A program made the translations under genes and the position numbers. Source: Geobacter metallireducens GS-15 (GTDB taxonomy: Bacteria > Desulfobacterota > Desulfuromonadia > Geobacterales > Geobacteraceae). From it: a stretch of DNA of 32,000 nt. Within the stretch, counting starts at the first letter, position 1. Every line of letters starts with the position of its first letter. The DNA lies in contig NC_007517.1 of assembly GCF_000012925.1 (NCBI RefSeq), positions 360,001 to 392,000 of the forward strand, written 5' to 3'. The notes below the pieces were generated by a model, which was not told the origin of the DNA, made no database searches, and saw only the letters and a list, made by a program, of their open reading frames with translations. Positions 1,543-17,292 of this stretch are shown here, piece after piece.

Positions 1543-1560
1543 CGTTACCGCAAGGTAACG
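1543..1560. promoter_or_regulatory. Palindrome CGTTACC-GCAA-GGTAACG, candidate upstream activator site
   Basis: Perfect 7-bp arms about 100-115 bp upstream of the sigma54-like -24 element. A further palindrome TTCCGGAA lies at 1507-1514 and a GTAACGT copy at 1523-1529. The position fits enhancer-binding-protein sites, but no known motif is matched. Confidence 0.2.
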
Positions 1561-1656: not shown

Positions 1657-1672
1657 TGGTACGTCACTTGCC
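1657..1672 (+). promoter_or_regulatory. Sigma54-type -24/-12 promoter element TGGTACG-TCAC-TTGCC
   Basis: GG (1658-1659) and GC (1670-1671) are separated by exactly 10 nt. It matches 6/7 of TGGCACG and 4/4 of TTGC. It lies 154 nt upstream of the tetraheme cytochrome ATG and on the correct strand. Confidence 0.5.
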
Positions 1673-1673
1673 A

Positions 1674-1701
1674 TTGTGATGTCAGGTTGTTGGTTCATAA
1701 T
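1674..1701 (+). promoter_or_regulatory. Alternative sigma70-like promoter TTGTGA-N16-CATAAT
   Basis: The -35-like TTGTGA (1674-1679) and -10-like CATAAT (1696-1701) lie immediately downstream of the sigma54-like element. Sequence alone cannot tell which element is used. Confidence 0.35.
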
Positions 1702-1825
1702 GTAAGGGACGGCGGGAGTTTTGACGGAAAGGTGCTTTGGGTAGAACAATATTTTATCTCAGCTGTCGGGGCGAGATCCCGTTGTCCCGAAACATGATGA
1801 GACATCGAAGAAAGGGGAGTATCCC

Positions 1826-2371
1826 ATGGGGAATCACGTCTGGCGGCCGCTCTATATCGCCGTGGCCCTGATCGCACTGGTCCTCGTTGCCAGAACGTTC
1901 CTGGTGCCGAAAGACTTCGGCGTCCACGAGCGAGGGTACATGTACGGCTGGCACCGCAAGGGAAATGAGGCCGAGTGGAAGGCCGTGACCGTGAAGTACC
2001 GGACGGCCGCGTACTGCAAGGAATGCCATGCCGACAAGGCGGAGAGCCTGGCCCGCACCCCCCACGGGATCATCTCCTGCGAGAACTGCCACGGGCCGGC
2101 GCTGAACCATCCCGAGGACCCGCCCACCCTCACCATCGACCGGAGCCGCAAGCTCTGCCTCCGCTGCCATGCAGCCCTCATCACCCCCACCAGCGGCAGG
2201 GCCTCCATCGCCGGCATCAACCCCGAGACCCACAACCCCGAGGCGGAATGCGTCCTGTGCCATGATCCCCACAACCCGGTCACAAGGGAGGCTCATGCAA
2301 AACGTGATGAGGAGGCTGGGATGCTAGGCGCAAGCGAGCGAGGAAGCGAGGCGTACCCGTTGGTACGTTGA
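1826..2371 (+). CDS. Membrane-anchored tetraheme c-type cytochrome (181 aa)
   Basis: ATG 6 nt after GGGGAG. One N-terminal hydrophobic helix (PLYIAVALIALVLVARTFLV) and four CXXCH motifs (CKECH, CENCH, CLRCH, CVLCH). The last ~28 codons run into the inverted-repeat element at 2288-2429, so the native C-terminus is uncertain. Confidence 0.85.
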   Translation: MGNHVWRPLYIAVALIALVLVARTFLVPKDFGVHERGYMYGWHRKGNEAEWKAVTVKYRTAAYCKECHADKAESLARTPHGIISCENCHGPALNHPEDPPTLTIDRSRKLCLRCHAALITPTSGRASIAGINPETHNPEAECVLCHDPHNPVTREAHAKRDEEAGMLGASERGSEAYPLVR

Positions 2372-2429
2372 GTTTTCGAGTGAGCGGCAACAACGCAGAC
2401 CGGCCCCGCAGTAGTTTTGCATGAGCCTC
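2288..2429. repeat. 16-bp perfect inverted repeat (GAGGCTCATGCAAAAC / GTTTTGCATGAGCCTC) bracketing 110 nt
   Basis: Arms at 2288-2303 and 2414-2429, read directly. The right arm abuts the AAGGAG RBS of the next gene. The left arm lies inside the 3' end of the cytochrome ORF. Confidence 0.8.
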
Positions 2430-2443
2430 AAGGAGTCAAAGCA

Positions 2444-3226
2444 ATGAACAGGCGAGACTTTCTCAAGAATAGCATCACGGTCATCGCGGGGCTGGCGGTG
2501 CCCCTCTCGGCCCTGGAACTCATCAGCCCGAGGAAGCTCCTGGCTCAAAAGGGAGACGAATCGCCGGTCCGGTGGGCCTTTCTGGTGGACACCCAGGCCT
2601 GCGTCGGGTGCGGCTTCTGCGTCAAGGCGTGCAAGACGGAGAACGAGATCCCCCACGAGACCAACATCACCCGCACCTGGGTGGAACGGTACGTGGTGAC
2701 CCGGAAGGGGAAGACCTACGTGGATTCTCCCCGGGGAGCCCGGGACGGCTTCACCACGGACCGGATCGATCAGGGCGAGGAAGGGTATCGCGAGGTCAAG
2801 GCGAAGGATGTCGAGAAGGCGTTCTTCGTCCCCAAGCTCTGCAACCAGTGCGATAACCCCGCCTGCGTCCAGGTCTGCCCCGTGGGAGCCACCTACCAGA
2901 CCCCCGACGGCGTGGTGCTGGTGGACCGGAAGCACTGCATCGGCTGCGCCTACTGCATCATGGCGTGCCCCTACGGGGTCCGCTCCTTCAATCCGGCCTA
3001 CAAGACGGCGGAGAAGTGCACCTTCTGCTATCACCGGATCAGTAAGGGGATGAAGACGGCCTGCGTGGACGCCTGCCCCTTCGGTGCCCGGAAGATCGGC
3101 AACCTGCGGGATCCCGACGATCCCGTGACGAAGACCATCATGTCGGGACGGGTCGGCGTCCTGAAGGAGCAGTACGGCACCAAGCCGCAGGTCTACTATC
3201 TCGCTCTTTCCCGGGAGGTGAAATAG
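2444..3226 (+). CDS. Tat-exported 4x[4Fe-4S] ferredoxin-type subunit (NrfC/PsrB/DmsB-like, 260 aa)
   Basis: AAGGAG lies 8 nt upstream of ATG 2444 (the ORF opens at TTG 2417). Twin-arginine signal MNRRDFLK. Four Cys clusters: CVGCGFCVKAC, CNQCDNPACVQVCP, CIGCAYCIMACP, CTFC..CVDACP. Confidence 0.9.
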   Translation: MNRRDFLKNSITVIAGLAVPLSALELISPRKLLAQKGDESPVRWAFLVDTQACVGCGFCVKACKTENEIPHETNITRTWVERYVVTRKGKTYVDSPRGARDGFTTDRIDQGEEGYREVKAKDVEKAFFVPKLCNQCDNPACVQVCPVGATYQTPDGVVLVDRKHCIGCAYCIMACPYGVRSFNPAYKTAEKCTFCYHRISKGMKTACVDACPFGARKIGNLRDPDDPVTKTIMSGRVGVLKEQYGTKPQVYYLALSREVK

Positions 3227-3228
3227 CC

Positions 3229-4482
3229 ATGGTACACGGTGAAGCATGGACGCTGAAAGAGTTGTTCGTCTACCCCAACGAGTACATCTACTGGACCATC
3301 CAGATCGTCATGTACCCGTTCATGACCGGCCTCGTGGCCGGCGCCTTTGTCCTTTCCTCCCTCTATCACGTCTTCGGGATCAAGCAGCTGAAGGATATCG
3401 CGCGGTTTTCACTGGTCTTCTCCTTCGCCCTCCTCCCCGTGGCGATGATCCCGCTCCAACTCCATCTCCAGCACCCGGAACGGGGGATCGAGGTGATGCT
3501 GACACCCCACTTCACCTCGGCCATTGCCGCCTTCGGCATCGCCTTCTCCACCTACGGCATGATCGTCGCCTCGGAGCTTTGGTTCGTCTACCGGCGGCAC
3601 TTCGTGGAGACGGCCCTGGCGCTTAGGGAAAAGCGGGACAAAACCATCCCCGAGCGGGGACGGCAGCTCCTCTTTTCGGCCCTCACCCTCGGTGCCTGGG
3701 ACATCAGCGAGCAGGCTCTGGCAAAGGATGAACGGGCCGTGAAGATCATGGCGACTGCCGGGATTCCGGTGGCCTGCCTCCTCCACGGCTATGCCGGATT
3801 TATTTTCGGCTCCGTGAAGGCCAATGCCCTCTGGACGACCCCCCTCATGCCCTTCATCTTCATCTGCTCCGCCGTGGTGTCGGGGATCGCCCTCTGCGTC
3901 CTCAGCTACATCGTGACCATGGAGGTCCGCAAGCTCATGGTCGCCTGGAGGAGGAAGAGCGACCCGAGCCTCCCCACTCCGGACGAGATCAGGACCGTGG
4001 AGATGTACGAGGTCACCATGACCGCAAAATACCTGGTCCTGGCCCTCCTGGCGGCCCTGGGGCTGGAGCTTCTGGACCTCCTCTTTCGGGACTACGCCAA
4101 GTTCAGCTCGTGGGAGATCGTGCGGAGCCTCATCTACGGCAAGGATTTCGTCAATGTCTTCGTGATCCAGTACGGGATCGGCAACCTGGTCCCCCTGGCC
4201 CTCTTCCTCCTGCCGCGGCTCACGGTGCGACGGGCGGTCGTGGCCACGCTCCTGGTCCTCATGGGGGTCTTCATGATGCGGTGGAACCTGGTCATCGGCG
4301 GCCAGGCCTTCTCGGCCTCCTTTTCCGGCTACATGCACTACGAGCTTCCGATCATCCCCCACGACATCGAGACCTTCAAGGAGGGGCTCCTGGGTGCCCT
4401 GCTGGTGGGGGTGCTGCCGTTCATCTTTTTCTGGGGGCTGAACAAGATTTTCCCGGTTTTCAAGTGCGAGGATACCCACTGA
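3229..4482 (+). CDS. NrfD/PsrC-like polytopic quinone-interacting membrane subunit (417 aa)
   Basis: Starts 2 nt after the upstream stop. Strongly hydrophobic multi-helix protein without CXXCH motifs. Its position after an NrfC-like subunit is the standard NrfCD/PsrBC/Cbc arrangement. Confidence 0.8.
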   Translation: MVHGEAWTLKELFVYPNEYIYWTIQIVMYPFMTGLVAGAFVLSSLYHVFGIKQLKDIARFSLVFSFALLPVAMIPLQLHLQHPERGIEVMLTPHFTSAIAAFGIAFSTYGMIVASELWFVYRRHFVETALALREKRDKTIPERGRQLLFSALTLGAWDISEQALAKDERAVKIMATAGIPVACLLHGYAGFIFGSVKANALWTTPLMPFIFICSAVVSGIALCVLSYIVTMEVRKLMVAWRRKSDPSLPTPDEIRTVEMYEVTMTAKYLVLALLAALGLELLDLLFRDYAKFSSWEIVRSLIYGKDFVNVFVIQYGIGNLVPLALFLLPRLTVRRAVVATLLVLMGVFMMRWNLVIGGQAFSASFSGYMHYELPIIPHDIETFKEGLLGALLVGVLPFIFFWGLNKIFPVFKCEDTH

Positions 4483-4510
4483 GAAAAAGTTTGGCGCCAA
4501 TTTTGATTAC

Positions 4511-4524
4511 TTGACTAAAGTCAA
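4511..4524. promoter_or_regulatory. FNR/CRP-family-type box TTGAC-TAAA-GTCAA
   Basis: Perfect palindrome, extended to CTTGACTAAAGTCAAG (4510-4525), resembling the FNR consensus TTGAT-N4-ATCAA. Its centre (4517.5) is 41.5 bp upstream of a start site predicted 7 nt after the -10-like TATTTT (4546-4551), which is class II activation geometry. Confidence 0.45.
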
Positions 4525-4539
4525 GGCAGCAAGGTTGCA
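4524..4539 (+). promoter_or_regulatory. Weaker sigma54-like element AGGCAGC-AAGG-TTGCA
   Basis: GG (4525-4526) and GC (4537-4538) are separated by 10 nt with a good TTGCA -12 box, but the -24 box matches only 4/7. It overlaps the FNR-like palindrome. Confidence 0.25.
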
Positions 4540-4628
4540 AAACGCTATTTTACGGATAGACTCTACTTAGGCTAATGTGTCGAATTAATTAGATATTGTA
4601 CACTTATCCACGTAACGGGAGGAACGTC

Positions 4629-5417
4629 ATGGCGAGAGGAATTCTCCGAGCAGCAGTCAGCCGCGTATGTCTGGTTCTGGTGCTGTCCCTTGCGGCGCAC
4701 GCATACGGTGATCCGGGCAAGGACCTGTTCGACAAACAGTGTTCAGGCTGCCACACCGTCGGCGGCGGCGATTCGGGGGGACCGGACCTCAAGGGGGTGA
4801 CCGACAGGAGGTCCGAGGAGTGGCTCGAATCGATCATCATTGAGCCGGACAAGCTGGCGGCGACCGATCCGGCTCGGAAGGAGCTGATCAAGAAATACGG
4901 CTACGAGATGCCAAAGCTCGGCATCGGCCATGACGACGCCATCAAGATCATCACCTGGCTCAGGGGAGGGGGGGGCGGCGCCCAGACCGGGTCACCGCCG
5001 GCGGACGAACATCCGGAAGTCGTGGTGACGCCGGCGCTGGTTGCCAAGGGGAAAGCGTTTTTCACCGGGCAAAAGCCCCTGGCCAACGGGGGCGCGCCGT
5101 GCATCGCCTGCCACCGGATCTCGACCCCGGGCATTACGGGAGGAAACCTCGCCGTCTCCAACCTGAGCGCCTCCTACCAGAAGATGGGGGAGAAGGGGAT
5201 GCGGGGGGCGCTCAAGGCCCTCAAGTTCCCGACCATGAAGAAGATCTACGAAAACCGCCCCCTGACCGATGACGAAGTAACGAGCCTGATCGCCCTGTAC
5301 AAGGATGCCGCCCTCACTAAGAGCACACCATCTGCGTCCTTCTTCCCCGCCTACGGCGCGGGGACTTTCGTCGTGTTCCTCGTCGGCTTGACTCTCTACA
5401 AAAGGAGGACCAGATAA
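4629..5417 (+). CDS. Diheme c-type cytochrome, Sec signal plus C-terminal membrane anchor (262 aa)
   Basis: ATG 4629 lies 6 nt after GGGAGGA (the ORF opens at 4596). Signal peptide ends LAAHAYG. Two class-I-like domains (CSGCH..YEMPK and CIACH..FPTMKK) are joined by a Gly-rich linker. C-terminal helix FVVFLVGLTLY is followed by KRRTR. The stop TAA directly abuts the narG ATG. Confidence 0.85.
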   Translation: MARGILRAAVSRVCLVLVLSLAAHAYGDPGKDLFDKQCSGCHTVGGGDSGGPDLKGVTDRRSEEWLESIIIEPDKLAATDPARKELIKKYGYEMPKLGIGHDDAIKIITWLRGGGGGAQTGSPPADEHPEVVVTPALVAKGKAFFTGQKPLANGGAPCIACHRISTPGITGGNLAVSNLSASYQKMGEKGMRGALKALKFPTMKKIYENRPLTDDEVTSLIALYKDAALTKSTPSASFFPAYGAGTFVVFLVGLTLYKRRTR

Positions 5418-8400
5418 ATGACACAGGAAAGGCTCAAGGACGACCGGTGCGGATGTGACCGCGGGTGGGAAGAGTTCTACCGGAACCGCTGGCAGTACGA
5501 CAAGGTGGTGCGGAGCACCCACGGGGTGAACTGCACCGGCAGCTGTAGCTGGATGGTCCATGTGAAGGACGGCATCGTCGGCTGGGAGCTCCAGGCCAAC
5601 GACTATCCCCAGTTCGACGGCACCATTCCCAACCACGAGCCCCGGGGGTGCACCCGGGGGATCAGCTACTCCTGGTACCTCTACAGCCCGCTGCGGGTGA
5701 AGTACCCCTACATGCGCGGCGCCCTCATCGATCTCTGGCGTGACGCCCGGAGCCGCCACGAAGACCCCGTGGAGGCCTGGAAGAGCATCGTGGAGAACCC
5801 GGAATCCCGTCGGGCCTACGTGAGCAAGCGGGGGACCGGTGGCATGCGCCGGGCCGACTGGGACGAGGTGACCGAGCTGATCGCCGCCTCCTCCATCTAC
5901 ACCGCGAAGAAGTACGGCCCGGACCGGGTCATCGGCTTCTCGCCGATCCCGGCCATGTCCATGATCAGCTACGCGGCCGGTACCCGGTTCCTCCAGCTCT
6001 TCGGCGGGGTCGCCATGAGCTTCTACGACTGGTACTGCGACCTCCCGCCGGCGTCGCCCCAGGTCTGGGGTGAGCAGACCGACGTGAACGAGTCCGCCGA
6101 CTGGTACAACGCCTCCTACATTGTGCTCTGCGGCTCCAACGTCCCCATGACCCGGACCCCGGACGCCCACTTCATGACCGAGGCCCGCTACCGGGGGACC
6201 AAGGTGGTGGTCATGTCGCCGGACTACAACATCGCCACCAAGTTCGCCGACAACTGGCTCCCGGTGGAGCAGGGGCACGACGGCGCCTTCTGGATGGCGG
6301 TGAACCACGTGATCCTCAAGGAGTGCTACGCCGACCGCCAGGTCCCCTTCTTCCAGGAGTATGCCCTCAAGTACACGGACCTCCCGTTCCTCGTGAAGCT
6401 GGAGGAGAAGGACGGAGCGTTGAAGCAGGGGGAATTCCTCCGGGCTGCCGAGTTCGAGCGGAGCGCCTCCCTCGAGCATGCCGACTGGACCCTCTGCGTG
6501 GCCGACGGCGCCGGGGACGTGAAGATCCCCCACGGGAGCCTCGGCACCCGCTGGAGCAAGCAGGAGGGGAAGTGGAACCTGGACATGACGGATCTCGTGG
6601 ACGGTACCCCCATCGACTGCCGCCTGACCCTCCTGGGTGGCGAGACCGGGAAGGTCCGCTTCCGGTTTGAAGCGGAAGGGGAGAGCGTCCGCGAGGTGCC
6701 GGTCCGGCGGATTGAGACGAAGAACGGCCCCGTGACGGTGGCTACCGTGTACGACCTTCTCATGGCCCAGTTCGGCGTTTCCCGGGGCCTCGGGGGGGAC
6801 TATCCCAAGAGCTACGACTCCGACAAGCCCTTCACCCCCAAGTGGCAGGAGAAGTACACCGGCATCGCCGCCGAATCCCTCATCAAGATCGCCCGGGAGT
6901 GGGCCGAGAACGGCGAGAAGAGCGGCGGCCGGAACATGATCATCATCGGCGCCGGGGTCAACCACTGGTACCACAACGACCTCATCTACCGGGCCGCCAT
7001 CACCGCCCTGATCCTGACCGGCAGCGTCGGCCGCAACGGCGCGGGGCTCGCCCACTACGTGGGGCAGGAGAAGGTGGTCCCCCTGGCTCCCTGGACATCC
7101 ATCGCCATGGCCCAGGACTGGGTAAAGCCGTCCCGGCTCCAGAACACCCCGAGCTTCTGGTACATCCACTCGGACCAGTGGCGCTACGACCGGACATTCG
7201 TCGACTACCTCAAGCCCGAGACCGGCGAGCGGATGCCCCTCCACGCCGCCGACATGAACGCCAAGGCGGCCCGGCTCGGCTGGCTCCCCTTCGCCCCCCA
7301 CTTCAACGAGAGCCCCCTGCGGCTCGTGGAGGCGGCCAAGGCCGCCGGCGCCCAGAGCGACGACGAAATCCGCTCCTGGCTCGTGAATCGCCTGAAGAGC
7401 GGAGAAACCCGCTTCGCCATCGAGGACCCGGATGGCCAGGGGAACTCCCCCAAGGTCTGGTTCATCTGGCGGGCCAACGCCATCTCCTCCAGCGCCAAGG
7501 GGCACGAGTTCTTCCTGAAGCACGTCATCGGCGCCCCCAACAGCAGCGTGAGCGCCAAGGAGGTGGCCAAGGGGCAGGTGAAGGATCTCGTGTGGCACGA
7601 CAAGGCCCCCGAAGGGAAGATGGACCTGGTGGTGGACCTCAACTTCCGGATGGACACCTCCACCCTCTACTCGGACATCGTCCTCCCCACGGCCACCTGG
7701 TACGAGAAGTCGGACCTGAACACCACCGACATGCACTCCTTCATCAACTGCCTGGACGCCGCCGTGCCGCCGTCCTGGGAGTCGAAATCTGACTGGAAGA
7801 TCTTCACCCGCATCGCCAAGAAGGTGAGCGAGCTGGCGGTGAAGCACCTCCCCACGCCGGTGAAGGATATCATCGCCGCGCCGCTCCTCCACGACACCCC
7901 GGGCGAGATCGCCCAGCGGCAGGTGAAGGACTGGAAGCTCGGCGAGTGCGAGGCGATCCCCGGCAAGACCATGCCGAACCTGGCCATCGTGGAGCGGGAC
8001 TACGTGAACCTCTACAACCGCTACGTGTCGGTGGGGCCCCATATCGGCCACCTCCATGCCCACGGGGTCAGTTGGGAGGCGGACGACGTCCACGAGCAGC
8101 TCCTGGAGACCATGCCGACCCGCACCTGGAACGGCAAGTCGTTCCTGGACATCGAAGACGAAAAGACCGTGGCCGACGTGCTCCTCTCCTTCGCGCCGGA
8201 GTCCAACGGGGAGCTGGCCTACCGGGCCTACCAGAACCTGGAGAAGCGGGTCGGCAAGCCCCTGGCCGGGATCGCCGCCGGAAGCCGCGACCTGCGGATC
8301 AAGTGGGAGCACGTGACCCAGAAGCCCCAGCGCTACTGCAGCACCCCGGTCTGGAGCGGCCTCGTGAACAACGGGCGTCCCTACGCCCCCTATACCCTGA

Positions 8401-8993
8401 ACGTGGAATACGACGTGCCGTGGCGCACCCTCTCGGGGCGCCAGTCCCTCTACCTGGACCACCCCTACTACGGCGAGTTCCACGAGGGGCTCCCCACCTT
8501 CAAGGCGAAGCTCAACCCGGCGATTCTGGACGAGACCGAGGGGGAACAGGGGCTTGTCCTCAACTTCCTCACCCCCCACGGCAAGTGGAGCATCCATTCC
8601 ACCTACAGCGACAACCTCCGAATGCTCACCCTGGGCCGGGGGGGACCGGTGGTCTGGCTCAACCACGAGGACGCAGCCGGGGCCGGCATCGAGGACAACG
8701 AGGAGATCGAGGTCTACAACTTCAACGGCGTGGTGGTCTCCCGGGCCTGTGTCTCCTCCCGGATCCCGAAAGGGGCCGCGGTGATGTACCACGCGCCGGA
8801 GCGGACCATCAACATCCAGAAGTCAAAGAAGACCGGCAAGCGGGGCGGGGTCCACAACAGCCTCTCCCGCATCCGCCTGAAGCCGACCCTGATGCTCGGG
8901 GGCTACGCCCAGTTCAGCTACTACTTCAACTACTGGGGACCGACCGGCGTGAACCGGGACAGCTACGTGGTCGTCAGAAAGCTGAGGGGGTGA
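5418..8993 (+). CDS. narG: Respiratory nitrate reductase alpha subunit NarG (1191 aa)
   Basis: The N-terminus [22 protein letters not shown] aligns by eye with E. coli NarG ([22 protein letters not shown]; FS0 H-x3-C-x3-C motif). Length and overall sequence fit a molybdopterin oxidoreductase. No twin-arginine signal. Confidence 0.97.
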   Translation: [1191 protein letters not shown]

Positions 8994-8997
8994 GACA

Positions 8998-10452
8998 ATG
9001 GATGTCAGAGCACAACTGGTAATGGTGTTCAACCTGGACAAATGCATCGGCTGCCACGCCTGCAGCCTCTCCTGCAAGAACATCTGGACCGACCGCAAGG
9101 GCGCCGAATACATGTGGTGGAACAACGTGGAGACGAAACCCGGCGTCGGCTACCCGAAGAAGTGGGAAGACCAGGAGGAGTTCAAGGGGGGATGGGTCGC
9201 CGACGGGCATAACCTGCGGCTCAAGGCCATGGGGAAGGGGCCGACGCTCCTCAACATGTTCTTCCAGCCCAACATGCCGAAGCTGGAGGACTACTACGAG
9301 CCCTTCGACTTCGACTACGGCAACCTCTACGGGGCCAAGGGGGGGGATGACCAGCCCGTGGCCGAGGCCTTTTCCCAGATCACCGGGGAGAAGATGGCCC
9401 ATATCAAGGCCGGCCCCAACTGGGACGACGACCTCTCCGGCTCCCAGGTCTACGCGTCGGCAGACGTGAACCTGGAGGACAAAAAGATCATCGAGCAGTA
9501 CAGCACGATGTTCATGCAGTACCTCCCCCGCATCTGCAACCACTGCGCGAACCCGGCCTGCGTCGCCTCCTGCCCGTCCCGGGCCATCTACAAGCGGGGG
9601 GAGGACGGGGTGGTTCTGGTGGACCAGGAGGTCTGCAAGGGGTGGCGGTTCTGCACGAGCGCCTGCCCCTACAAGAAGGTCTACTTCAACTGGAACAGCG
9701 GCAAGGCGGAGAAGTGCATCTTCTGCTTCCCCCGGACCGAGACCGGCCAGTGCAACGCCTGCGCCCACAGCTGCGTCGGCCGTATCCGCTACGTGGGGGT
9801 CCTCCTCTACGACGCCGAGAAGGTGGAGCAGGCGCTCCTGAAGCCCGACAACCAGCTCGTCGAGGCCCATCGGGGGGTGATCCTCGATCCCCGGGACGAG
9901 GCGGTCCGGGAAGGGGCGAGGAAGAATGGCGTCCCCGAGCAGTGGCTGGAGGCCGCCGAGAAGTCGCCGGTCTATGCCTTGATCAAGGAGTTCGAACTCG
10001 CCCTGCCGCTCCACCCCGAGTTTCGGACCATGCCCATGGCCTACTACATCCCCTCCCTCTCGCCGGTTCTGACCTCCGGCGGCGAGCTCCACGAGCTGGT
10101 GGAGCACGGCACGATCCCGACCCGGGAGGCCCTGCGCGCCCCCATCGGGTACCTGGCGAGCCTCTTCGGGGGCGGCAACCGGGACGTGGTGGCGGCGGCC
10201 CTGGAGAAGCTCATCGCCCTTCGCATCCACATGCGGGCCAAGAACCTCAACCAGCCCACGGACGAGGCGAGCCTCGGGAAGGCCGGGCTCGACGAGGCAG
10301 GGGCGAAACGTCTCTACCGTCTCTTCACCATCGGCGGCTACAACGAGCGGAACATCATTCCGCCCCAGCAGCGGGAAGAGCTCGATTCCCACACCCGCAA
10401 GGGGGCCAGCGGCTTCGGCATTCTCAAGAAGACGGGGAGGGGAAAACGATGA
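8998..10452 (+). CDS. narH: Respiratory nitrate reductase beta subunit NarH (484 aa)
   Basis: MVFNLDKCIGCHACSLSCKNIWT, YLPRICNHCANPACVASCPS, KCIFCFPR and CVGRIRYVGVLLYD closely parallel E. coli NarH. Starts 4 nt after the narG stop. Confidence 0.97.
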   Translation: MDVRAQLVMVFNLDKCIGCHACSLSCKNIWTDRKGAEYMWWNNVETKPGVGYPKKWEDQEEFKGGWVADGHNLRLKAMGKGPTLLNMFFQPNMPKLEDYYEPFDFDYGNLYGAKGGDDQPVAEAFSQITGEKMAHIKAGPNWDDDLSGSQVYASADVNLEDKKIIEQYSTMFMQYLPRICNHCANPACVASCPSRAIYKRGEDGVVLVDQEVCKGWRFCTSACPYKKVYFNWNSGKAEKCIFCFPRTETGQCNACAHSCVGRIRYVGVLLYDAEKVEQALLKPDNQLVEAHRGVILDPRDEAVREGARKNGVPEQWLEAAEKSPVYALIKEFELALPLHPEFRTMPMAYYIPSLSPVLTSGGELHELVEHGTIPTREALRAPIGYLASLFGGGNRDVVAAALEKLIALRIHMRAKNLNQPTDEASLGKAGLDEAGAKRLYRLFTIGGYNERNIIPPQQREELDSHTRKGASGFGILKKTGRGKR

Positions 10453-11069
10453 CAGCGGATATCTATTCATCCCTCGCCCGGATGCTCGACTATCCCCAGG
10501 AGAAAAAGAGCCTCCTGTGGGCCATCGGCACCGTCCAGAGGTATCTGAGCGAAGAGGGGCTGGAGTGCCCCCTCGACACCTTCGGAGAGTTCATGGCCGC
10601 ATCGACCCTGGCGGAGCTCCAGGAGGAATACGTGGCGACCTTCGATTTCAACCCGGCGGTGGCCCCCTATCTGGGGCACCACCTCTTTGGCGACAACCAG
10701 AAGAAGGGGGCGTATCTCATTGCCCTGAAGGGGGAGTATGGCCGCCACGGCTACACCCCCCTCGGCAACGAGCTTCCCGATCATCTCCCCGTCATACTCT
10801 GGTTCCTGGCCCATCTGGTCCGCGGGGGAGAGGACGACGCACGGAGATCGTTCATTGACCGGCACGTATTGCCGGGGGTCGAGAAGCTCAGTGACAGCTT
10901 CGCGGCATCCCGCCGGGATTCCCCCTGGAGGCCCGCGGTCGAGGCCGTCCGCCTCATCTGCGGCGAGGACTCCGCCCGGGGAGAGCACCCCGCGGAAGGG
11001 ATCGGCGATGGCGTTCTTGAAAAAAACCGCCCGAAAACGGCTGCGCATCCGGAGGTAAGCCCATGCTGA
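10449..11069 (+). CDS. narJ: Nitrate reductase assembly chaperone NarJ (206 aa)
   Basis: ATGA overlap with the narH stop. FDFNPAVAPYLGHHLFGD and ELPDHLPVILWFLAHL are NarJ/TorD-family-like. Only the 3' part of track ORF 9642..11069 is used. Confidence 0.85.
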   Translation: MTADIYSSLARMLDYPQEKKSLLWAIGTVQRYLSEEGLECPLDTFGEFMAASTLAELQEEYVATFDFNPAVAPYLGHHLFGDNQKKGAYLIALKGEYGRHGYTPLGNELPDHLPVILWFLAHLVRGGEDDARRSFIDRHVLPGVEKLSDSFAASRRDSPWRPAVEAVRLICGEDSARGEHPAEGIGDGVLEKNRPKTAAHPEVSPC

Positions 11070-11758
11070 ACACCGTGCTGAACACCTTTATCTTTGTGGC
11101 CCTTCCCTATGTGGCCCTGGCGATGCTCATCGTCGTCACCCCCTACCGCTATTACTCGAACCGTCTCACCTGGTCGGCCTACTCCACCCAGTTCCTGGAG
11201 CGGAAGACCCTCTACTGGGGGGCCAACCCTTGGCACTACGGGATCATCCCCATCATACTGGCCCACACCCTTGGCGTTGTGGCCCCCGGTGCCATGAAGT
11301 CGCTCTTGGGGAACGTTGAGGTCCTGGTCTTTCTGGAGAGCGTGGGGCTCGGCCTGGGGCTCTTCGCGCTCTTCGGCTGCGTGGTGCTCCTGCTGCGTCG
11401 CGTCAACGCTCCCATGCTGAAGCGCGTAACCTATCCCGCCGACTGGGTGCTCCTCATTCTGCTGACCTTCCAGACGCTCACCGGGGTCTACATCAGCCTC
11501 TTCATGCGCTGGGGCTCCCAGTGGTACCTCCACACGGCGGTTCCCTACCTCTATTCGCTCCTCTACTTCAACCCGAAGGTGGAGTACCTGGCCGACTTCC
11601 CCCTCATCCTCAAGCTGCACGCGGCAGGGGCATTCCTGATCGTGGCGCTCCTGCCGTTCACCAAGCTGGTCCACCTCCTCTACTGGCCTCTCGATTTTCT
11701 CAAGGATCCACCCATCCTCTACCGCTGGCGCTCCCGGCCCGAGGGGAAGGTGGAGTAA
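11063..11758 (+). CDS. narI: Respiratory nitrate reductase gamma subunit NarI (231 aa, diheme b)
   Basis: GGAGGT 6 nt upstream; overlaps narJ by 7 nt. Five hydrophobic helices with conserved His (PWHYGIIPIILAHTLG; KLHAAGAFLIVALLPFTKLVHLL), as in E. coli NarI. Confidence 0.9.
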   Translation: MLNTVLNTFIFVALPYVALAMLIVVTPYRYYSNRLTWSAYSTQFLERKTLYWGANPWHYGIIPIILAHTLGVVAPGAMKSLLGNVEVLVFLESVGLGLGLFALFGCVVLLLRRVNAPMLKRVTYPADWVLLILLTFQTLTGVYISLFMRWGSQWYLHTAVPYLYSLLYFNPKVEYLADFPLILKLHAAGAFLIVALLPFTKLVHLLYWPLDFLKDPPILYRWRSRPEGKVE

Positions 11759-11778
11759 CGGCATTCAAGGAGAACGCC

Positions 11779-13098
11779 ATGGAAAGGCACGAGCAGAAGA
11801 CGGCAACGGCGGCAACGTGGGGGACCCAGGTCAGGACGCGCACCATGGCGACCCACAGGTACAAGCAGATCTCGGTCCTGACGATGAACACCTTCGCCTT
11901 CACTGTCTGCTTCGCGGTCTGGGTGATGTTCTCCATCATCGGCATCCCGATCAAGGGCGCCCTAGGCCTGAACGAGACCCAGTTCGGCATCCTGGCCGCA
12001 ACCCCCATTCTCTCCGGCTCATTGATTCGGCTGCCGCTCGGGATGTGGACCGACAAGTACGGCGGACGCATTGTCTTCTTCATTCTGATGCTCTGCACCA
12101 TCGTCCCCATCTACCTGGTGAGCGCCGCCACGGCGTACTGGCACTTTCTCCTCCTGGGGCTCTTCATCGGTCTTGCCGGCGGCGCCTTCTCGGTGGGGAT
12201 CAGCTACACCGCCCGCTGGTTCACCAAGGCCCGTCAGGGATTCGCCATGGGGATCTTTGGCGCCGGGAACGCGGGGGCCGCGGTCACCAAGTTCCTGGCC
12301 CCCTCCCTGGTGGTGGCCTACGGCTGGCAGATGGTCCCCAAGGTCTATGCCGTGGCCATGCTCGTGACGGCCATCCTGTTTTGGGCATTCACCTTCACCG
12401 AGCACAGCCACAAAGTGAGCTCCACCGTGACCATCAAAGACCAGCTGGCGGCCCTCAGGGACCCGAAGGTCTGGCGCTACTGCCAGTACTACGCCATCGT
12501 CTTCGGGGGCTACGTGGGGCTCTCCCTCTGGATGACCAAGTACTACATCAACGAGTACGGCTTCGACATCCGGACCGCGGCCCTGGTGGCCGCCATCTTC
12601 GTGCTACCCTCCGGCGTGATCCGCGCCCTGGGAGGGTGGCTGTCGGACCGTTTCGGCGCCCACACCGTCACCTGCTGGGTCATGTGGGTCTCCGGCGGGT
12701 GCCTCCTGCTCCTCTCGATCCCCCACTTCGATGTGGTTGTCACCACGGTGAACGGTCCCGTCGCGCGCCACGTGGGGCTCAACGTATGGGTGTTCACCTC
12801 CCTTCTCTTCGTTGTCGGCATTGCGTGGGGATTCGGCAAGGCATCGGTGTTCAAGCACATCTCCGATGAATACCCCCACAACATCGGCGTGATCTCCGGC
12901 ATCGTGGGGCTCATTGGCGGGCTCGGCGGGTTTGTCCTCCCCATCATGTTCGGCGCCCTGGTGGACCTGACCGGTGTCCGGAGCACCGCTTTCATGCTCC
13001 TGTACGGTTCCACGTGCGTTTCCCTGTTCTGGATGTACCTGGCCCTGAAGAAAGAAAACGTTCATCGCAAGCTGAAGACCGCCGACATTCTCGAATAA
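11779..13098 (+). CDS. narK: MFS nitrate/nitrite transporter NarK-type, copy 1 (439 aa)
   Basis: AAGGAG upstream of ATG 11779 (the ORF opens earlier, inside narI). 12-helix MFS pattern with Gly-rich NarK-like motifs (GGAFSVGISY, GIFGAGNAGAA). An alternative start at 11845 is possible. Confidence 0.85.
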   Translation: MERHEQKTATAATWGTQVRTRTMATHRYKQISVLTMNTFAFTVCFAVWVMFSIIGIPIKGALGLNETQFGILAATPILSGSLIRLPLGMWTDKYGGRIVFFILMLCTIVPIYLVSAATAYWHFLLLGLFIGLAGGAFSVGISYTARWFTKARQGFAMGIFGAGNAGAAVTKFLAPSLVVAYGWQMVPKVYAVAMLVTAILFWAFTFTEHSHKVSSTVTIKDQLAALRDPKVWRYCQYYAIVFGGYVGLSLWMTKYYINEYGFDIRTAALVAAIFVLPSGVIRALGGWLSDRFGAHTVTCWVMWVSGGCLLLLSIPHFDVVVTTVNGPVARHVGLNVWVFTSLLFVVGIAWGFGKASVFKHISDEYPHNIGVISGIVGLIGGLGGFVLPIMFGALVDLTGVRSTAFMLLYGSTCVSLFWMYLALKKENVHRKLKTADILE

Positions 13099-13137
13099 CA
13101 GCCAATAACAGCCAATTCCCATGGAAGGAGAATAACG

Positions 13138-14565
13138 ATGCCAACGGACGTATTGACAGCAACGGAAACGAAAAAGAGTGCATCATCGCACGTTCTGACG
13201 GAGTGGACCCCGGAAGACCAGCATTTCTGGGAAACCAGGGGGAAGGCCATTGCCACCCGCAACCTCTGGATCTCGATCCCGGCCCTCTTCCTGGCCTTTG
13301 CGGTCTGGATGGTCTGGAGCGTGGTCTGCGTGAACCTCCCCAACATCGGCTTCAAGTACGACACCAACAAGCTCTTCTGGCTGACCGCCCTCCCCGCGCT
13401 TGCGGGGGCGACGCTCCGCATCTTCTACTCCTTCATGGTCCCCATCTTCGGGGGACGCCGGTGGACCGCCATCAGCACGGCATCGCTCCTGATTCCCGCC
13501 ATGGGGATCGGCTTTGCGGTACGGGACCCCGCGACCAGCTACTCGACCATGCTGATCCTGGCCGTCCTCTGCGGGTTCGGCGGCGGCAACTTCGCCTCCA
13601 GCATGGCCAACATCAGCTTCTTCTATCCCAAGGCCCTGAAGGGGACCGCCCTGGGGCTGAACGCCGGCCTGGGGAACCTGGGGGTGAGCGCCATGCAGTT
13701 CCTCGTGCCGCTGGTTATCTCCACCGGCATGTTCGCCGCCCTCTGCGGCGATCCCCAGCAGTGCGTCATCAACGGGGTGACCAAGCCTATGTGGCTCCAG
13801 AACGCCGGCTTCGTCTGGGTGCCGTTCATCGCCCTCTCCGCCCTGGTCGCCTGGTTCGGCATGAACGACATCGCCAGCGCCAAGGCATCCTTCAGTGACC
13901 AGGCCATCATCTTCCGGCGCAAGCACAACTGGCTCATGTGCATCCTCTACCTCGGCACCTTCGGTTCGTTCATCGGCTACTCGGCGGGGCTCCCGCTCCT
14001 GACCAAGTCCCAGTTCCCCGGCATCAACCCGGTCAAGTACGCCTTCCTCGGCCCCCTCGTGGGCGCACTGATCCGTCCCGTCGGTGGGTGGCTGGCCGAT
14101 AAGCTCGGTGGTGCGCGGGTCACCTTCTGGAACTTCATCATCATGGCCGGGGCCGTGTTCGGCGTGCTGGCGTTCCTCCCCCACGGCGGAGTCGGCGGCA
14201 ACTTCTGGGGATTCCTCGCCATGTTCATCCTCCTCTTCGCCACCACCGGCATCGGCAACGGCTCCACCTTCCGCATGATCCCGGTGATCTTCCTGACCGA
14301 GCGGCAGCGCGATGCGGCGGGAAGGGGGAAGGAGGCGGAGGAGCAGGCAATCAAGGACGCCAACAAGGAGGCGGCCGCCGTCCTGGGCTTCACCTCGGCA
14401 TTTGCGGCCTACGGCGGGTTTTTCATCCCCAAGAGCTTCGGCACCTCCATTGCCGCCACCGGTGGCCCCCAGGTGGCCCTCTACGGGTTCATCGCCTTCT
14501 ACGCGAGCTGTATCATCCTCACCTGGTGGTATTATTCGCGTAAGAACGCTGAAGTCCCCTGCTAA
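13138..14565 (+). CDS. narK: MFS nitrate/nitrite transporter NarK-type, copy 2 (475 aa)
   Basis: GGAAGGAG upstream of the ATG. MFS with NarK signatures (GFGGGNFASSMANISFFYPK, GLNAGLGNLGVS). The second transporter is consistent with the symporter plus antiporter pairs seen in nar clusters. Confidence 0.9.
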   Translation: MPTDVLTATETKKSASSHVLTEWTPEDQHFWETRGKAIATRNLWISIPALFLAFAVWMVWSVVCVNLPNIGFKYDTNKLFWLTALPALAGATLRIFYSFMVPIFGGRRWTAISTASLLIPAMGIGFAVRDPATSYSTMLILAVLCGFGGGNFASSMANISFFYPKALKGTALGLNAGLGNLGVSAMQFLVPLVISTGMFAALCGDPQQCVINGVTKPMWLQNAGFVWVPFIALSALVAWFGMNDIASAKASFSDQAIIFRRKHNWLMCILYLGTFGSFIGYSAGLPLLTKSQFPGINPVKYAFLGPLVGALIRPVGGWLADKLGGARVTFWNFIIMAGAVFGVLAFLPHGGVGGNFWGFLAMFILLFATTGIGNGSTFRMIPVIFLTERQRDAAGRGKEAEEQAIKDANKEAAAVLGFTSAFAAYGGFFIPKSFGTSIAATGGPQVALYGFIAFYASCIILTWWYYSRKNAEVPC

Positions 14566-14608
14566 TGCCGTTTCCCAGCAGGCATCTAACCAACAAAAGG
14601 AGAACAAT

Positions 14609-14887
14609 GTGAAAAAAACAGCTATCACCATCGCCTTCGTCGCCACTTCTGCCTTTGCCGCACATGTTTTCGCCGCCGACGTATTTGAATTCCCCGCATC
14701 AATGGGTAAAGTGACATTCCCCCATAAAATGCACCAGGAGATGCTGAAGGACTGCAAGAAGTGCCACGAAAACGGACCGGGCAAGATCAAGGACTTCGGC
14801 AAGGACTGGGCCCACAAGACCTGCAAGGGGTGCCATACCGAGCTGAAGAAAGGCCCGGTCGGCTGCACGGACTGCCACAAGAAGTAA
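14609..14887 (+). CDS. ppcF: Periplasmic triheme cytochrome c7, PpcA family (92-aa precursor)
   Basis: GTG start 8 nt after AAGGAG (the nearby ATG at 14607 is out of frame). Signal peptide ends HVFA/AD. The mature ~71 aa carry CKKCH, CKGCH and CTDCH and align by eye with Geobacter PpcA (..FPHK.H......CKKCHE.GPGKI..FGK..AH...CKGCH...KKGP..C..CHKK). The symbol comes from my memory of a ppc paralog in the G. metallireducens nar operon and is unverified. Confidence 0.9.
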   Translation: MKKTAITIAFVATSAFAAHVFAADVFEFPASMGKVTFPHKMHQEMLKDCKKCHENGPGKIKDFGKDWAHKTCKGCHTELKKGPVGCTDCHKK

Positions 14888-14900
14888 ATATGGGAACCTG

Positions 14901-14938
14901 CGGTAGGGGCGCTGCTTGCCGCGCCGCCCCTACCGTTT
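14901..14938 (+). terminator. GC-rich hairpin CGGTAGGGGCG-N13-CGCCCCTACCG followed by TTT
   Basis: Perfect 11-bp stem 14 nt after the ppc stop. The T-run is short (3 nt), so this may be a partial terminator or an RNA stabiliser between ppc and moeA. Confidence 0.5.
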
Positions 14939-14972
14939 AGCCACCGAATCGATGGCCTAAAGAGGTGATGCC

Positions 14973-16181
14973 ATGATCTCCATTGAAGAAGCGCAACAGA
15001 TCATCCTTTCCCACACGGGGCTTCTGGGAACCGAGGAGGTTCCCCTGTTGCACGCGCTTCACCGGGTGATCGCGGAGGATGTCCACGCGCCGTGGGATAT
15101 CCCGGGGGCCGACCATTCGGCCATGGATGGCTACACCTTTGCCTACGACGACGTGCAGGGGGGAAGCCTCGAGGTCTGCGGCTTCCTTCCTGCCGGCGTG
15201 GCACCGACGGAGCCGGTTTCCCCCGGCTGCGCCATGAAAATCATGACCGGCGCTCCGATTCCCCCCGGTTGCGATACCGTTGTTCCCGTGGAGGATGTGC
15301 TGGAGGAAGGTACAACCATTCGCCTGCGGGGGATGGTCAAGCGGGGCGACCATATCCGCCGCCGTGGCGAGGAGGTGAACGCCGGTGATCTGGTCGTTGC
15401 CTCCGGAAGCCTCCTGCGCCCTCCGGAGATCGGCATCCTCTCTTCCCTGGGGAAGACGACAGCCACCGTGTTCCGCAAGGCCCGCGTCGCGGTTCTCTCC
15501 ACCGGCGACGAGCTGTTGCAACCCGGCTCCATCCCGGAGCCGGGCAAGATCATCAACAGCAACAGTACCAGCATTGCCGCCCAGCTTCTGGAGGCGGGGG
15601 CCGAGCCGCTCATGCTCGGCATCGCCCGGGATGATCTGGAGACTACCCGGCGCAAGATCAGCGACGGGCTCCAGGCCGATCTCCTCGTCACCACCGGCGG
15701 CGTGTCGGTGGGGGACAGGGACTTTGTCCGCGATGCGCTCCTGGACCTGGGGGGAGAGATCAAATTCTGGAAGGTGGCCATGAAGCCGGGGAAGCCGGTG
15801 GCCTTTGCCATGGTCCGGGGGAAACCGGTCTTTGCCCTGCCGGGGAACCCGGTGGCGGCCATGGTCGCCTTCGAGCAGTTCGTCCGTCCAGCCCTCCTGA
15901 CGATGATGGGGCATGCCCGCATCCTTCGGCCCGTGGTCCGGGGAACCCTGGAGGAGGCCATCAGGAACCGGGGAGGGAGGCCCCACTTTGTACGGGTGTC
16001 GGTCCGCCTCGAGGCGGGGCGCTACCGGCTGGCCACCACCGGCGACCAGGGGTCGGCGCGGCTTTCATCCCTCACCAGCGGCAACGGGCTCGTGAAGCTC
16101 CCTCCCGACGCCGCCATCGTCGCTGGCAGCGAGGTGGAGGTGCAGCTCCTGGACCGGCACTTCGAGATGGGTCACCCCTGA
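14973..16181 (+). CDS. moeA: Molybdopterin molybdenumtransferase MoeA (402 aa)
   Basis: MoeA-like sequence throughout (MDGYTF, IMTGAPIP, GDELL..G.I.NSN, TTGGVSVGD.D, KPGKP.AF, LPGNPVAA). AGAGGTGA RBS. Confidence 0.92.
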   Translation: MISIEEAQQIILSHTGLLGTEEVPLLHALHRVIAEDVHAPWDIPGADHSAMDGYTFAYDDVQGGSLEVCGFLPAGVAPTEPVSPGCAMKIMTGAPIPPGCDTVVPVEDVLEEGTTIRLRGMVKRGDHIRRRGEEVNAGDLVVASGSLLRPPEIGILSSLGKTTATVFRKARVAVLSTGDELLQPGSIPEPGKIINSNSTSIAAQLLEAGAEPLMLGIARDDLETTRRKISDGLQADLLVTTGGVSVGDRDFVRDALLDLGGEIKFWKVAMKPGKPVAFAMVRGKPVFALPGNPVAAMVAFEQFVRPALLTMMGHARILRPVVRGTLEEAIRNRGGRPHFVRVSVRLEAGRYRLATTGDQGSARLSSLTSGNGLVKLPPDAAIVAGSEVEVQLLDRHFEMGHP

Positions 16182-16182
16182 G

Positions 16183-17163: not shown

Positions 17164-17204
17164 GATCACCCCTTTCGCCCTTTCGTCACGTTTCCGTTCT
17201 ATTT

Positions 17205-17233
17205 CCTGAATTCATTCACAAGCCGTGTATAAT
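17205..17233 (+). promoter_or_regulatory. Sigma70-like promoter with consensus -10 TATAAT
   Basis: TATAAT at 17228-17233 with a weak -35 (CCTGAA/CTGAAT) 16-17 nt upstream. It lies 60 nt upstream of the globin-sensor ATG. Confidence 0.35.
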
Positions 17234-17292
17234 GAAAAATATAGTAATCTCGGGAAACGTCAGGACTGCCTGCCGATGAACGGAGTGCCTCT

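Follow-up and report, generated by a model that had tools for sequence, protein, structure and literature searches.

Three modules of periplasmic cytochromes are encoded around the cytoplasmic-type nitrate reductase genes narGHJI of Geobacter metallireducens GS-15, and they raise the question of whether electrons reach the reductase through them or leave the quinone pool by them. The stretch analysed here (the window) comprises 32,000 nucleotides (nt), positions 360,001 to 392,000 of contig NC_007517.1. The modules are a trio of tetrahaem cytochrome, iron-sulfur (FeS) protein and NrfD-like subunit (cbcSTU-2), a dihaem cytochrome (narC) and a PpcA-like trihaem cytochrome (ppcF). An initial annotation took the whole for a single unit that might form an inward conduit, from periplasmic cytochromes to the quinone pool or NarI and on to NarGH. 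Our analysis leads instead to a composite reading, to which we give a probability of roughly 0.45: the cluster consists of two units, NarC is part of a NarCGHI enzyme, and electrons would run outward to the nitrite reductase NrfA.

The locus is, with near certainty, the known nitrate-respiration cluster Gmet_0325-0337. Its gene order and content are those published (cbcSTU-2, narC, narGYJI, narK-1/2, ppcF, moeA-2, moaA-2), and ten of ten trio-to-NarK2 proteins compared are 100% identical in G. metallireducens RCH3, where CbcU-2 matches residue for residue on contig AGJM01000006.1; these two agreements establish the identity. The three cytochrome modules around NarGHJI had been described correctly, as all the genes are present on the plus strand and family searches back every assignment among the 13. 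The gene count also stood, but the run spans 1826-17163 rather than ending at 14,887, since moeA and moaA extend to 17163.

Both the observation and its inward-electron interpretation are already in print. Aklujkar et al. (2009; PMC2700814) described the dihaem cytochrome gene as the first gene of the nar operon and suggested that, by way of PpcF, humics or electrodes could supply the nitrate reductase with electrons; the annotation's account of a G. metallireducens nar operon with a dihaem cytochrome and a ppc paralogue was therefore accurate, and its inward idea was not new. A 2022 transcriptome paper (PMC10989804) uses the names cbcS-2 (Gmet_0325) and cbcU-2 (Gmet_0327), for a 'CbcSTU-2 complex', and narC (Gmet_0328). 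The existing literature treats narC as the operon start and names the trio without discussion. What we add is the two-unit structure, a clade-restricted linkage of the trio to nar with a single origin, the homology of NarC with its Thermus counterpart, and the adjacency of nrfA and the trio in a relative.

Two candidate promoters in one run of genes

From gene to gene along the run, the spacing is 72, 2, 146, 0, 4, -4, -7, 20, 39, 43, 85 and 1 nt, that is, -7 to 85 nt throughout apart from an AT-rich gap of 146 nt between cbcU-2 and narC. The tight spacing first reported thus holds across most junctions but not at this one, between the trio and the dihaem cytochrome gene, where a conserved promoter-type element is found. 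Three predicted control elements are relevant here:

1544..1559, plus strand: palindrome GTTACCGCAAGGTAAC, the sole perfect copy in the window
1657..1672, plus strand: sigma-54-type -24/-12 element TGGTACGTCACTTGCC (TGGTACG-N4-TTGCC), upstream of cbcS-2
4511..4524, plus strand: FNR/CRP-type box TTGACTAAAGTCAA in the 146-nt cbcU-2/narC gap, with TATTTT about 22 nt downstream

Upstream of cbcS-2, alignment revealed an invariant block, TTTTGGTACG-N4-TTGCCA, within otherwise diverged intergenic DNA. Matches to the -24/-12 consensus numbered 14 against 12.5 expected, so that a single match is not significant alone; the support for a sigma-54-type element comes from its conservation, not from the consensus match. 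The palindrome precedes the -24/-12 element at a constant distance of 112-113 nt, across an AT-rich spacer, in loci L001, L002/L089, L004, L084 and L090 (compared loci are cited by number) and in a further metagenome cbcS-2 locus, L140, and is a candidate upstream activator site to which a sigma-54 enhancer-binding protein could bind. The pair of palindrome and -24/-12 element was seen in the nar-linked clade only, at 6 of the 82 CbcSTU loci with enough upstream sequence. When the palindrome was sought metagenome-wide, at least 120 stretches were returned, nearly all of them by chance; with a filter for a downstream -24/-12 element, the informative ones among the matches listed were L140 and L210.

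The gap in front of narC presents a different element. TTGACTAAAGTCAA is the only perfect TTGAY-N4-RTCAA in the window, and of the 11 Geobacterales narC loci, 10 have such a box at a distance of 113-191 nt before narC, among them every one of the four trio-less loci. Its retention where the trio is missing suggests that the box belongs to the ancestral nar promoter region, and that narC is the first gene of the nar unit, in agreement with Aklujkar et al. A candidate sigma-54 promoter in the same gap, AGGCAGCAAGGTTGCA at 4524-4539, was rejected: its -24 GG is not kept in L003 (AAGCCC), whereas the FNR-type box and a TATT-T element are.

Published RNA sequencing (RNA-seq) of co-cultures separates the two sets of genes as well. 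When the partner was G. sulfurreducens instead of M. barkeri, cbcS-2 and cbcU-2 were up 5.4- and 2.3-fold, while in the opposite comparison (M. barkeri over G. sulfurreducens) narC, narH and ppcF were 5.8-, 5.4- and 5.5-fold higher, near-equal changes that fit one transcript from narC to ppcF. Given different, separately conserved promoter-type elements and opposite changes in expression, the single 13-gene unit initially proposed is not supported, and the cluster very probably comprises two separately promoted units, cbcSTU-2 and narC-narGHJI-narK1-narK2-ppcF-moeA2-moaA2.

NarC, the nitrate reductase and the Thermus precedent

The nar unit begins with the following genes:

4629..5417, plus strand: narC (Gmet_0328), periplasmic dihaem class I cytochrome c; PF00034 71 bits, CXXCH at 38 and 158, signal peptide, C-terminal transmembrane helix
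5418..8993, plus strand: narG (Gmet_0329), catalytic molybdopterin subunit, cytoplasmic type; TIGR01580 1555 bits against a cut-off of 1084
8998..10452, plus strand: narH (narY, Gmet_0330), FeS subunit; TIGR01660 622 bits against a cut-off of 524
10449..11069, plus strand: narJ (Gmet_0331), assembly chaperone; TIGR00684 77 bits against 59, overlapping narH by 4 nt and narI by 7 nt
11063..11758, plus strand: narI (Gmet_0332), dihaem b membrane subunit, quinol oxidation site; PF02665 215 bits, TIGR00351 108.7 against 105.55

Judged by these family models, NarGHJI is a cytoplasm-facing nNar: all four curated equivalog cut-offs are reached and the NarI anchor is present. The N-terminus of NarG, MTQERLKDDRCGCDRGWEEFYRNRWQ, has no twin-arginine signal and runs into the HGVNCTGSC FS0 motif. 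It begins (5418-5560) at position 27 of the TIGR01580 model and is shorter than the E. coli type, in which the N-terminal region includes the first NarJ-binding peptide; NarG of G. hydrogenophilus is 10 residues longer (1201 aa). On a Desulfuromonadaceae contig (L092 14372-15826), narH is split into three short open reading frames (ORFs) of 159, 157 and 155 aa, either because the nar operon is decaying there or because of frameshift errors in the assembly.

narC abuts narG without a spacer in the window (in relatives the two genes are 0 nt apart or overlap by 1 nt), and a dihaem cytochrome gene stands immediately 5' of narG in 11 of 11 Geobacterales loci and in Thermus. A tblastn search with NarC against 7.3 Gb of plasmid sequence matched a 262-aa cytochrome c of Thermus thermophilus megaplasmids (E 4e-9), whose gene lies directly upstream of narG in narCGHJI-K. 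By BLASTP, NarC shares 29% identity with T. thermophilus NarC across 213 aa (E 6e-19); both haem motifs are aligned, and the two proteins agree in length, topology and operon position; for the window protein, the signal-like N-terminus and the hydrophobic anchor segment at residues 236-254 come from a hydropathy calculation only. Moreover, a CRP/FNR-type regulator controls the Thermus narCGHJIK(T) operon, and an FNR/CRP-type box precedes narC here. As far as its sequence can tell, NarC thus has the testable features of the Thermus NarC family. At the same time, NarC diverges faster than NarG: in L084, L090 and L091 NarG is 94-96% identical to that of the window and NarC only 64-65%, which reflects either very quick evolution or an exchange, for example with the second narC paralogue, Gmet_1019.

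In Thermus, NarC is a fourth Nar subunit that interacts with NarI; without it NarG is soluble and immature, and narC mutants of denitrifying strains do not grow on nitrite or NO (reviewed in PMC7694296). Because these mutants fail on nitrite and NO, the Thermus authors proposed a route from NarI through NarC to periplasmic reductases, standing in for complex III (PMC7694296). Thermus is the only experimental precedent for the NarC family, and it points outward. The parallel has its limits, as Thermus denitrifies via cd1 NirS and Nor, has neither a Cbc trio nor a Ppc cytochrome, and uses the Nrc NADH dehydrogenase as its dedicated partner; the function of NarC was tested in Thermus, whereas in Geobacter the protein is known from sequence. 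By analogy, NarC of G. metallireducens is probably a Nar subunit, and would most likely bind NarI to give a four-subunit NarCGHI with a periplasmic haem-c end. The link between accessory cytochromes and Nar proposed in the initial annotation is well founded for narC, which abuts narG and is homologous to a Nar subunit of Thermus.

A further proposal is the reverse reaction, in which NarGHI-NarC would oxidise nitrite and pass the electrons via NarC to periplasmic acceptors. This was raised as a possibility in PMC2700814, and the nitrite oxidoreductase (NXR) clusters of Nitrobacter carry a NarC-like cytochrome (PMC7694296). On the other hand, the NarG, NarH, NarJ and NarI equivalog models all score above their cut-offs, and a Gmet_0329/Gmet_1020 double knockout, which removes narG, abolishes nitrate reduction (PMC12607771). 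The NarK transporters and the FNR-type box fit a reductive role. We know of no high-potential acceptor for such electrons in this strict anaerobe, and we regard nitrite oxidation as a highly improbable function of the enzyme.

The CbcSTU-2 trio and the direction of electron flow

The first unit encodes three proteins:

1826..2371, plus strand: cbcS-2 (Gmet_0325), membrane-anchored periplasmic tetrahaem cytochrome c; CXXCH at residues 64, 85, 111 and 142, one N-terminal transmembrane helix
2444..3226, plus strand: cbcT-2 (Gmet_0326), FeS protein exported by twin-arginine translocation (Tat), NrfC/DsrO/TtrB-like; MNRRDFLK N-terminus (Tat motif RRDFLK), four Cys-cluster ([4Fe-4S]) motifs
3229..4482, plus strand: cbcU-2 (Gmet_0327), NrfD/PsrC-family integral membrane subunit; PF03916 128 bits, at least 8 hydrophobic segments

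CbcS-2 matches the Pfam families Paired_CXXCH_1, Cytochrom_c3_2 and Cytochrome_C7. CbcT-2 matches Fer4_11 with 89 bits, and its top NCBIfam matches are TtrB (201 bits), DsrO, ArrB and NrfC, all under curated cut-offs. CbcU-2, presumably the menaquinol/menaquinone site, is 73% identical to a Geotalea daltonii protein annotated as the cytochrome b subunit of menaquinol oxidoreductase complex Cbc4. The co-linear order of an anchored tetrahaem cytochrome, a Tat-exported FeS protein with four cluster motifs and an NrfD-family subunit is the Cbc4/CbcSTU architecture, as in GSU0068-0070 of G. sulfurreducens. Homology places the trio in the same family, as a paralogue and not an orthologue of GSU0068-0070, and by these sequence comparisons it is a member of the Cbc4/CbcSTU family. 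It differs from the G. sulfurreducens complex in belonging to another paralogue clade, one that is linked to nar and has a sigma-54-type promoter not shared with it. In G. sulfurreducens, CbcS has an NrfH-like haem core and an apparent potential (Eapp) of -151 mV and reduces PpcA in vitro, while deletion of Cbc4 produced no Fe(III)/Mn(IV) phenotype.

Four related assignments were considered for the trio and set aside. As NrfBCD it scores 154 against 378 with TIGR03149 (NrfC) and 34 against 348 with TIGR03148 (NrfD), and it has four haems and an anchor but no pentahaem NrfB. As an NrfH/CymA/NapC-type protein, CbcS-2 scores 19.6 against 134 with TIGR03153 (NrfH). The Qrc models give 104 against 400 (QrcC) and 19 against 570 (QrcD), and the trio has no molybdopterin-like (QrcB-like) subunit; for DsrJOP, the DsrO model is a near miss (189.1 against 200) and DsrP scores 24.8 against 350. 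By curated cut-offs the trio therefore falls outside the NrfBCD, NrfH, Qrc and DsrJOP families, yet it may resemble one of them in function. In layout it is like E. coli NrfABCD, with a periplasmic multihaem cytochrome, a Tat-exported NrfC-type FeS protein and an NrfD membrane subunit, but its cytochrome is an anchored tetrahaem where E. coli NrfB is a soluble pentahaem, and nrfA does not adjoin the trio in the window. Desulfovibrio QrcABCD has a similar cytochrome/FeS/NrfD-type module at the periplasmic face and provides a precedent for inward flow to the quinone pool, although, as noted, the window trio lacks a QrcB-like subunit and stays far under the QrcC and QrcD cut-offs.

Members of the family are widespread. 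Searching species-representative genomes with a profile of the NrfD-like subunit gave more than 570 confirmed loci (Geobacteraceae, other Desulfuromonadales, many Nitrospirota, Thermodesulfovibrionales). Among the best 80, the S, T and U genes stand together and in the same order in nearly all, a few ending at a contig edge, and narC-narG follows in only three, those with a subunit of 87% identity or more to the window's. A NarC-based search added loci, for a total of seven distinct ones with trio-narCGHJI-narK: the window, G. hydrogenophilus, the metagenome-assembled genome (MAG) SKS4.bin16, GEOBC, Geobacter sp. GCA_030834625 and two Joint Genome Institute (JGI) metagenome contigs. A gene order common to seven loci argues that the arrangement is no chance juxtaposition. 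Four other narCGHJI-narK loci have no trio (Geomobilimonas luticola, G. argillaceus and two Desulfuromonadaceae MAGs). The annotation had allowed that a trio conserved next to unrelated genes, and beside nar only here, would speak against its proposal; the neighbours of the family are indeed mostly unrelated, but the adjacency is not unique to this genome.

In a neighbour-joining tree of the NrfD-like subunit, all seven nar-adjacent copies fall into one clade. Its sister is L005, where the nar operon is convergent and lies about 9 kb from the trio. G. hydrogenophilus and the SKS4 MAG each have a second, roughly 71%-identical trio elsewhere (L015 and L017), the window trio being 71-73% identical to the non-nar G. 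hydrogenophilus copy (L015). On this tree, the nar-linked trio is a distinct paralogue, CbcSTU-2, whose adjacency to nar arose once. The adjacency is kept despite turnover of the upstream flank, which is different in each relative (an insertion sequence (IS) element, Ku/LigD, toxin-antitoxin genes, nrfA or Sdh-like genes), and in L003 the trio stands beside a nar operon whose NarG is only 81% identical. Behind narK2, a ppcF-like gene is present in four of the five trio-bearing loci that can be read that far (L091 is the exception) and in none of the four trio-less loci. The connection of these modules with Nar is thus upheld too, ppcF lying in the nar unit and changing with narC and narH, and the trio paralogue being kept by nar across the clade. 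Adjoining the nar-linked trio in several loci (L003 3518, L091 6542, L090 3273, L140 and L005 11406) is a 259-aa P-loop protein with weak Zeta_toxin/AAA_33 matches, 74-78% identical between loci; it is not in the window, where an IS element sits.

Such a distribution could also arise if the genes were merely neighbours by descent: CbcSTU-2 would then be a general menaquinol:cytochrome c oxidoreductase for extracellular electron transfer that one ancestral rearrangement placed by nar, NarC would act only in Nar assembly or anchoring, and PpcF would be one of an interchangeable Ppc pool. That the family is hardly ever found near nar, that the adjacency arose only once and that the two units have promoters of different types are all compatible with this, as is the rise of cbcS-2 and cbcU-2 together with cbcU-1, cbcABCDE and cbcL, opposite to nar, during direct interspecies electron transfer (DIET) with G. 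sulfurreducens; Ppc cytochromes, moreover, exchange electrons promiscuously (PMC13591261). However, mere descent accounts poorly for an adjacency that outlives the turnover of its flank and recurs beside the diverged nar operon of L003, for the sister lineage L005, where trio and nar remain about 9 kb or less apart, on either side of a NIT nitrate sensor, for a regulatory region of the nar-linked paralogue not seen at other CbcSTU loci, and for a ppcF confined to trio-bearing loci. We consider this explanation somewhat unlikely.

The outward alternative draws on nrfA. In L090, a bona fide nrfA (four CXXCH and one CXXCK) lies 278 nt upstream of cbcS, a layout that parallels nrfA-BCD of E. coli, and nrfA flanks the trio-less narC operons of L082 and L087 (G. 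luticola and G. argillaceus), indicating that nar and nrf genes tend to cluster in Geobacterales. No nrfH was found beside nrfA in L090 or L087, and a survey of Geobacterales (PMC11492766) reports NrfH to be poorly represented and NrfA and CbcS to be well represented. Between the nrfA stop and the palindrome upstream of cbcS, L090 also has a second FNR-type box, TTGACCAAAGTCAA (about 7103-7116); the control region of its trio may combine both regulator types.

The remaining parts of the proposed pathway are encoded downstream of narI:

11779..13098, plus strand: narK-1 (Gmet_0333), nitrate transporter of the major facilitator superfamily (MFS); MFS_1, 439 aa as called in L001, function as in PMC2700814
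13138..14565, plus strand: narK-2 (Gmet_0334), MFS nitrate/nitrite antiporter; MFS_1, 475 aa, function as in PMC2700814
14609..14887, plus strand: ppcF (Gmet_0335), periplasmic trihaem cytochrome c7 of 92 aa; NF043011 142.4 bits against a cut-off of 120

PpcF has a signal peptide and CXXCH motifs at 49, 72 and 86, its closest solved structures are those of the PpcA-E family, and on these features it is a member of the Geobacter c7 (PpcA) family. The purified protein has an Eapp of -56 mV, about 60-80 mV less negative than PpcA-E, from which it also differs in its haem oxidation order (PMC6275270) and in being encoded inside the nar operon. Transfer from CbcS (-151 mV in G. sulfurreducens) to PpcF would be downhill.

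Under the composite reading, NarI would oxidise menaquinol and pass electrons inward to NarH and NarG for cytoplasmic nitrate reduction, and the nitrite formed would be exported by NarK-2. Within the trio, electrons would move from the menaquinone pool (CbcU) through the periplasmic FeS protein (CbcT) to the membrane-anchored tetrahaem CbcS; CbcSTU-2, PpcF and possibly NarC would in this way carry menaquinol-derived electrons outward to the periplasmic cytochrome pool, which would feed the six-electron reduction of nitrite to ammonium by NrfA. The neighbourhood would then amount to a complete nitrate-to-ammonium kit. We favour the outward role because of the Thermus precedent, the nrfA-trio adjacency in L090, the occurrence of nrfA near narC operons, the NrfBCD-like layout, the potentials of CbcS and PpcF, the survey of NrfH, NrfA and CbcS, and the restriction of ppcF to trio-bearing loci. 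This part of the reading, the NrfA-directed role of the trio and PpcF, is tentative and falls rather short of even odds.

The inward conduit would run the same parts backwards: cytochromes reduced by a cathode, humics, Fe(II) or Fe(0) would pass electrons to PpcF, and from there through a reversed CbcSTU-2 into menaquinone, or from NarC to NarI, and then to NarGH. The nar-linked CbcSTU-2, PpcF and NarC would in that case be a dedicated, separately regulated junction for electron uptake to NarGH. ppcF does lie inside the nar unit and change with nar in RNA-seq, NarC offers NarI a periplasmic haem-c contact, and the trio is kept beside nar across the whole clade; NrfD/FeS/cytochrome modules of the Qrc type are established to work inward and reduce menaquinone, and the species reduces nitrate with electrodes and anthrahydroquinone-2,6-disulfonate (AHDS) as donors. 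Haem chains are, in principle, reversible, so inward flow would be possible under strongly reducing conditions. At the same time, we found no direct evidence for this direction in our analysis. Electrons would have to go uphill from PpcF (-56 mV) to reach a cytochrome of the CbcS type (about -151 mV for that of G. sulfurreducens), the QrcC and QrcD models are far under cut-off, and the trio goes up in a nitrate-free, electron-exporting co-culture while nar falls. The Thermus NarC precedent is outward, and the adjacency of nrfA in relatives, with the trio itself in L090, points to nitrite reduction. An inward conduit is thus distinctly unlikely in our view, and so is the dedicated uptake junction that it would imply. 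For Geobacter, where we infer direction from sequence and analogy, an outward, nitrite-directed role appears at least as well supported as an inward conduit.

Several points weigh against the composite reading as well. Cathodes, reduced humics and Fe(II) can each serve G. metallireducens as electron donor for nitrate reduction, which requires some inward route. Its own NrfAH is reported as Gmet_0294-0296 (PMC12607771), and an extra donor to NrfA would be redundant; NarC, being of class I type, may be too high in potential to feed NrfA at all. The single ancestral origin of the adjacency means that the seven loci are not seven independent observations and, together with the co-induction of the trio with other Cbc complexes during nitrate-free DIET, counts against any dedicated role for it. 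As for the two units, both promoters are predictions from consensus and conservation, not mapped start sites, and the RNA-seq cultures were grown without nitrate. No terminator was detected in the gap at 4483-4628, the nearest terminator-like match (4403-4419) being weak and inside cbcU-2, so that read-through from the trio into narC is possible. The literature searched contained neither genetic nor physiological experiments on narC, ppcF or cbcSTU-2 in Geobacter nitrate or nitrite respiration, nor any transcriptomes of nitrate-, cathode- or Fe(0)-grown G. metallireducens.

Flanking genes and the significance of the locus

The rest of the nar unit and the genes around it are as follows:

24-1247: ISL3-family transposase, complete, directly upstream of the cluster; DDE_Tnp_ISL3 234 bits
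14973..16181, plus strand: moeA-2 (Gmet_0336), molybdenum cofactor biosynthesis; 402-aa ORF, named in PMC2700814
16183..17163, plus strand: moaA-2 (Gmet_0337), radical-SAM molybdenum cofactor biosynthesis; 326-aa ORF, CNLRCRYC near the N-terminus, named in PMC2700814
17293..18195, plus strand: protoglobin-PsiE fusion membrane protein; PF11563 104 bits, PF06146 78 bits
18250..19629, plus strand: PAS / sigma-54 activator / HTH_8 enhancer-binding protein; Sigma54_activat 252 bits, PAS_4, HTH_8

The G. hydrogenophilus orthologue of MoeA-2, 98% identical, carries MoeA_N, MoCF_biosynth and MoeA_C. The RCH3 contig begins just past the ISL3 element, as expected, since repeated IS elements break assemblies. 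The remainder of the window (19.7-32 kb) contains no nar-related genes, only an OmpA-like protein, DUF2201, DAHP synthase, an M1 peptidase, ChaN and a hybrid histidine kinase.

Two of the downstream genes may be regulatory. The PAS/sigma-54 activator is a candidate regulator of the cbcS-2 promoter. In L005, an 80%-identical orthologue stands beside a NIT-HAMP nitrate/nitrite sensor (14981-17627, minus strand) between the trio and nar, a hint that this activator family responds to nitrogen oxides. In the metagenome contig L210 (about 1700-2140, minus strand), two GTTACC-N4-GGTAAC-like palindromes are followed by a sigma-54 -24/-12 element, TGGCACCGTGCTTGCA, and then by a tatA-like gene, and the activator encoded there is 46% identical to that of the window, which hints that the family recognises palindromes of this kind. 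The protoglobin-PsiE protein is a candidate gas or redox sensor that could be linked to the cluster. The T. thermophilus nar cluster has a protoglobin-domain gene downstream of narK (L093 20977-21816), and NarC-type nar operons may repeatedly be accompanied by a sensor of this sort.

A 2026 review lists Cbc4/CbcSTU among four predicted quinol:cytochrome c complexes of the Geobacter inner membrane whose physiological role is unknown. As it was first put, the finding at this locus adds nothing beyond the publications of 2009-2022. With a CbcSTU paralogue kept by nar (and by nrfA in one relative), a sigma-54-type control region of its own and a Ppc paralogue embedded in the nar operon, the locus is nevertheless a handle both on the role of Cbc4-type complexes and on inward electron flow for electrode- or mineral-driven nitrate reduction. 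Should the inward junction prove true after all, Geobacter would have its first defined route of electron uptake at the inner membrane, and a Cbc4-type complex its first physiological role. The value of the locus lies in its compact test set, cbcSTU-2, narC and ppcF, for which opposite predictions can be made for acetate-driven and externally driven nitrate or nitrite reduction.

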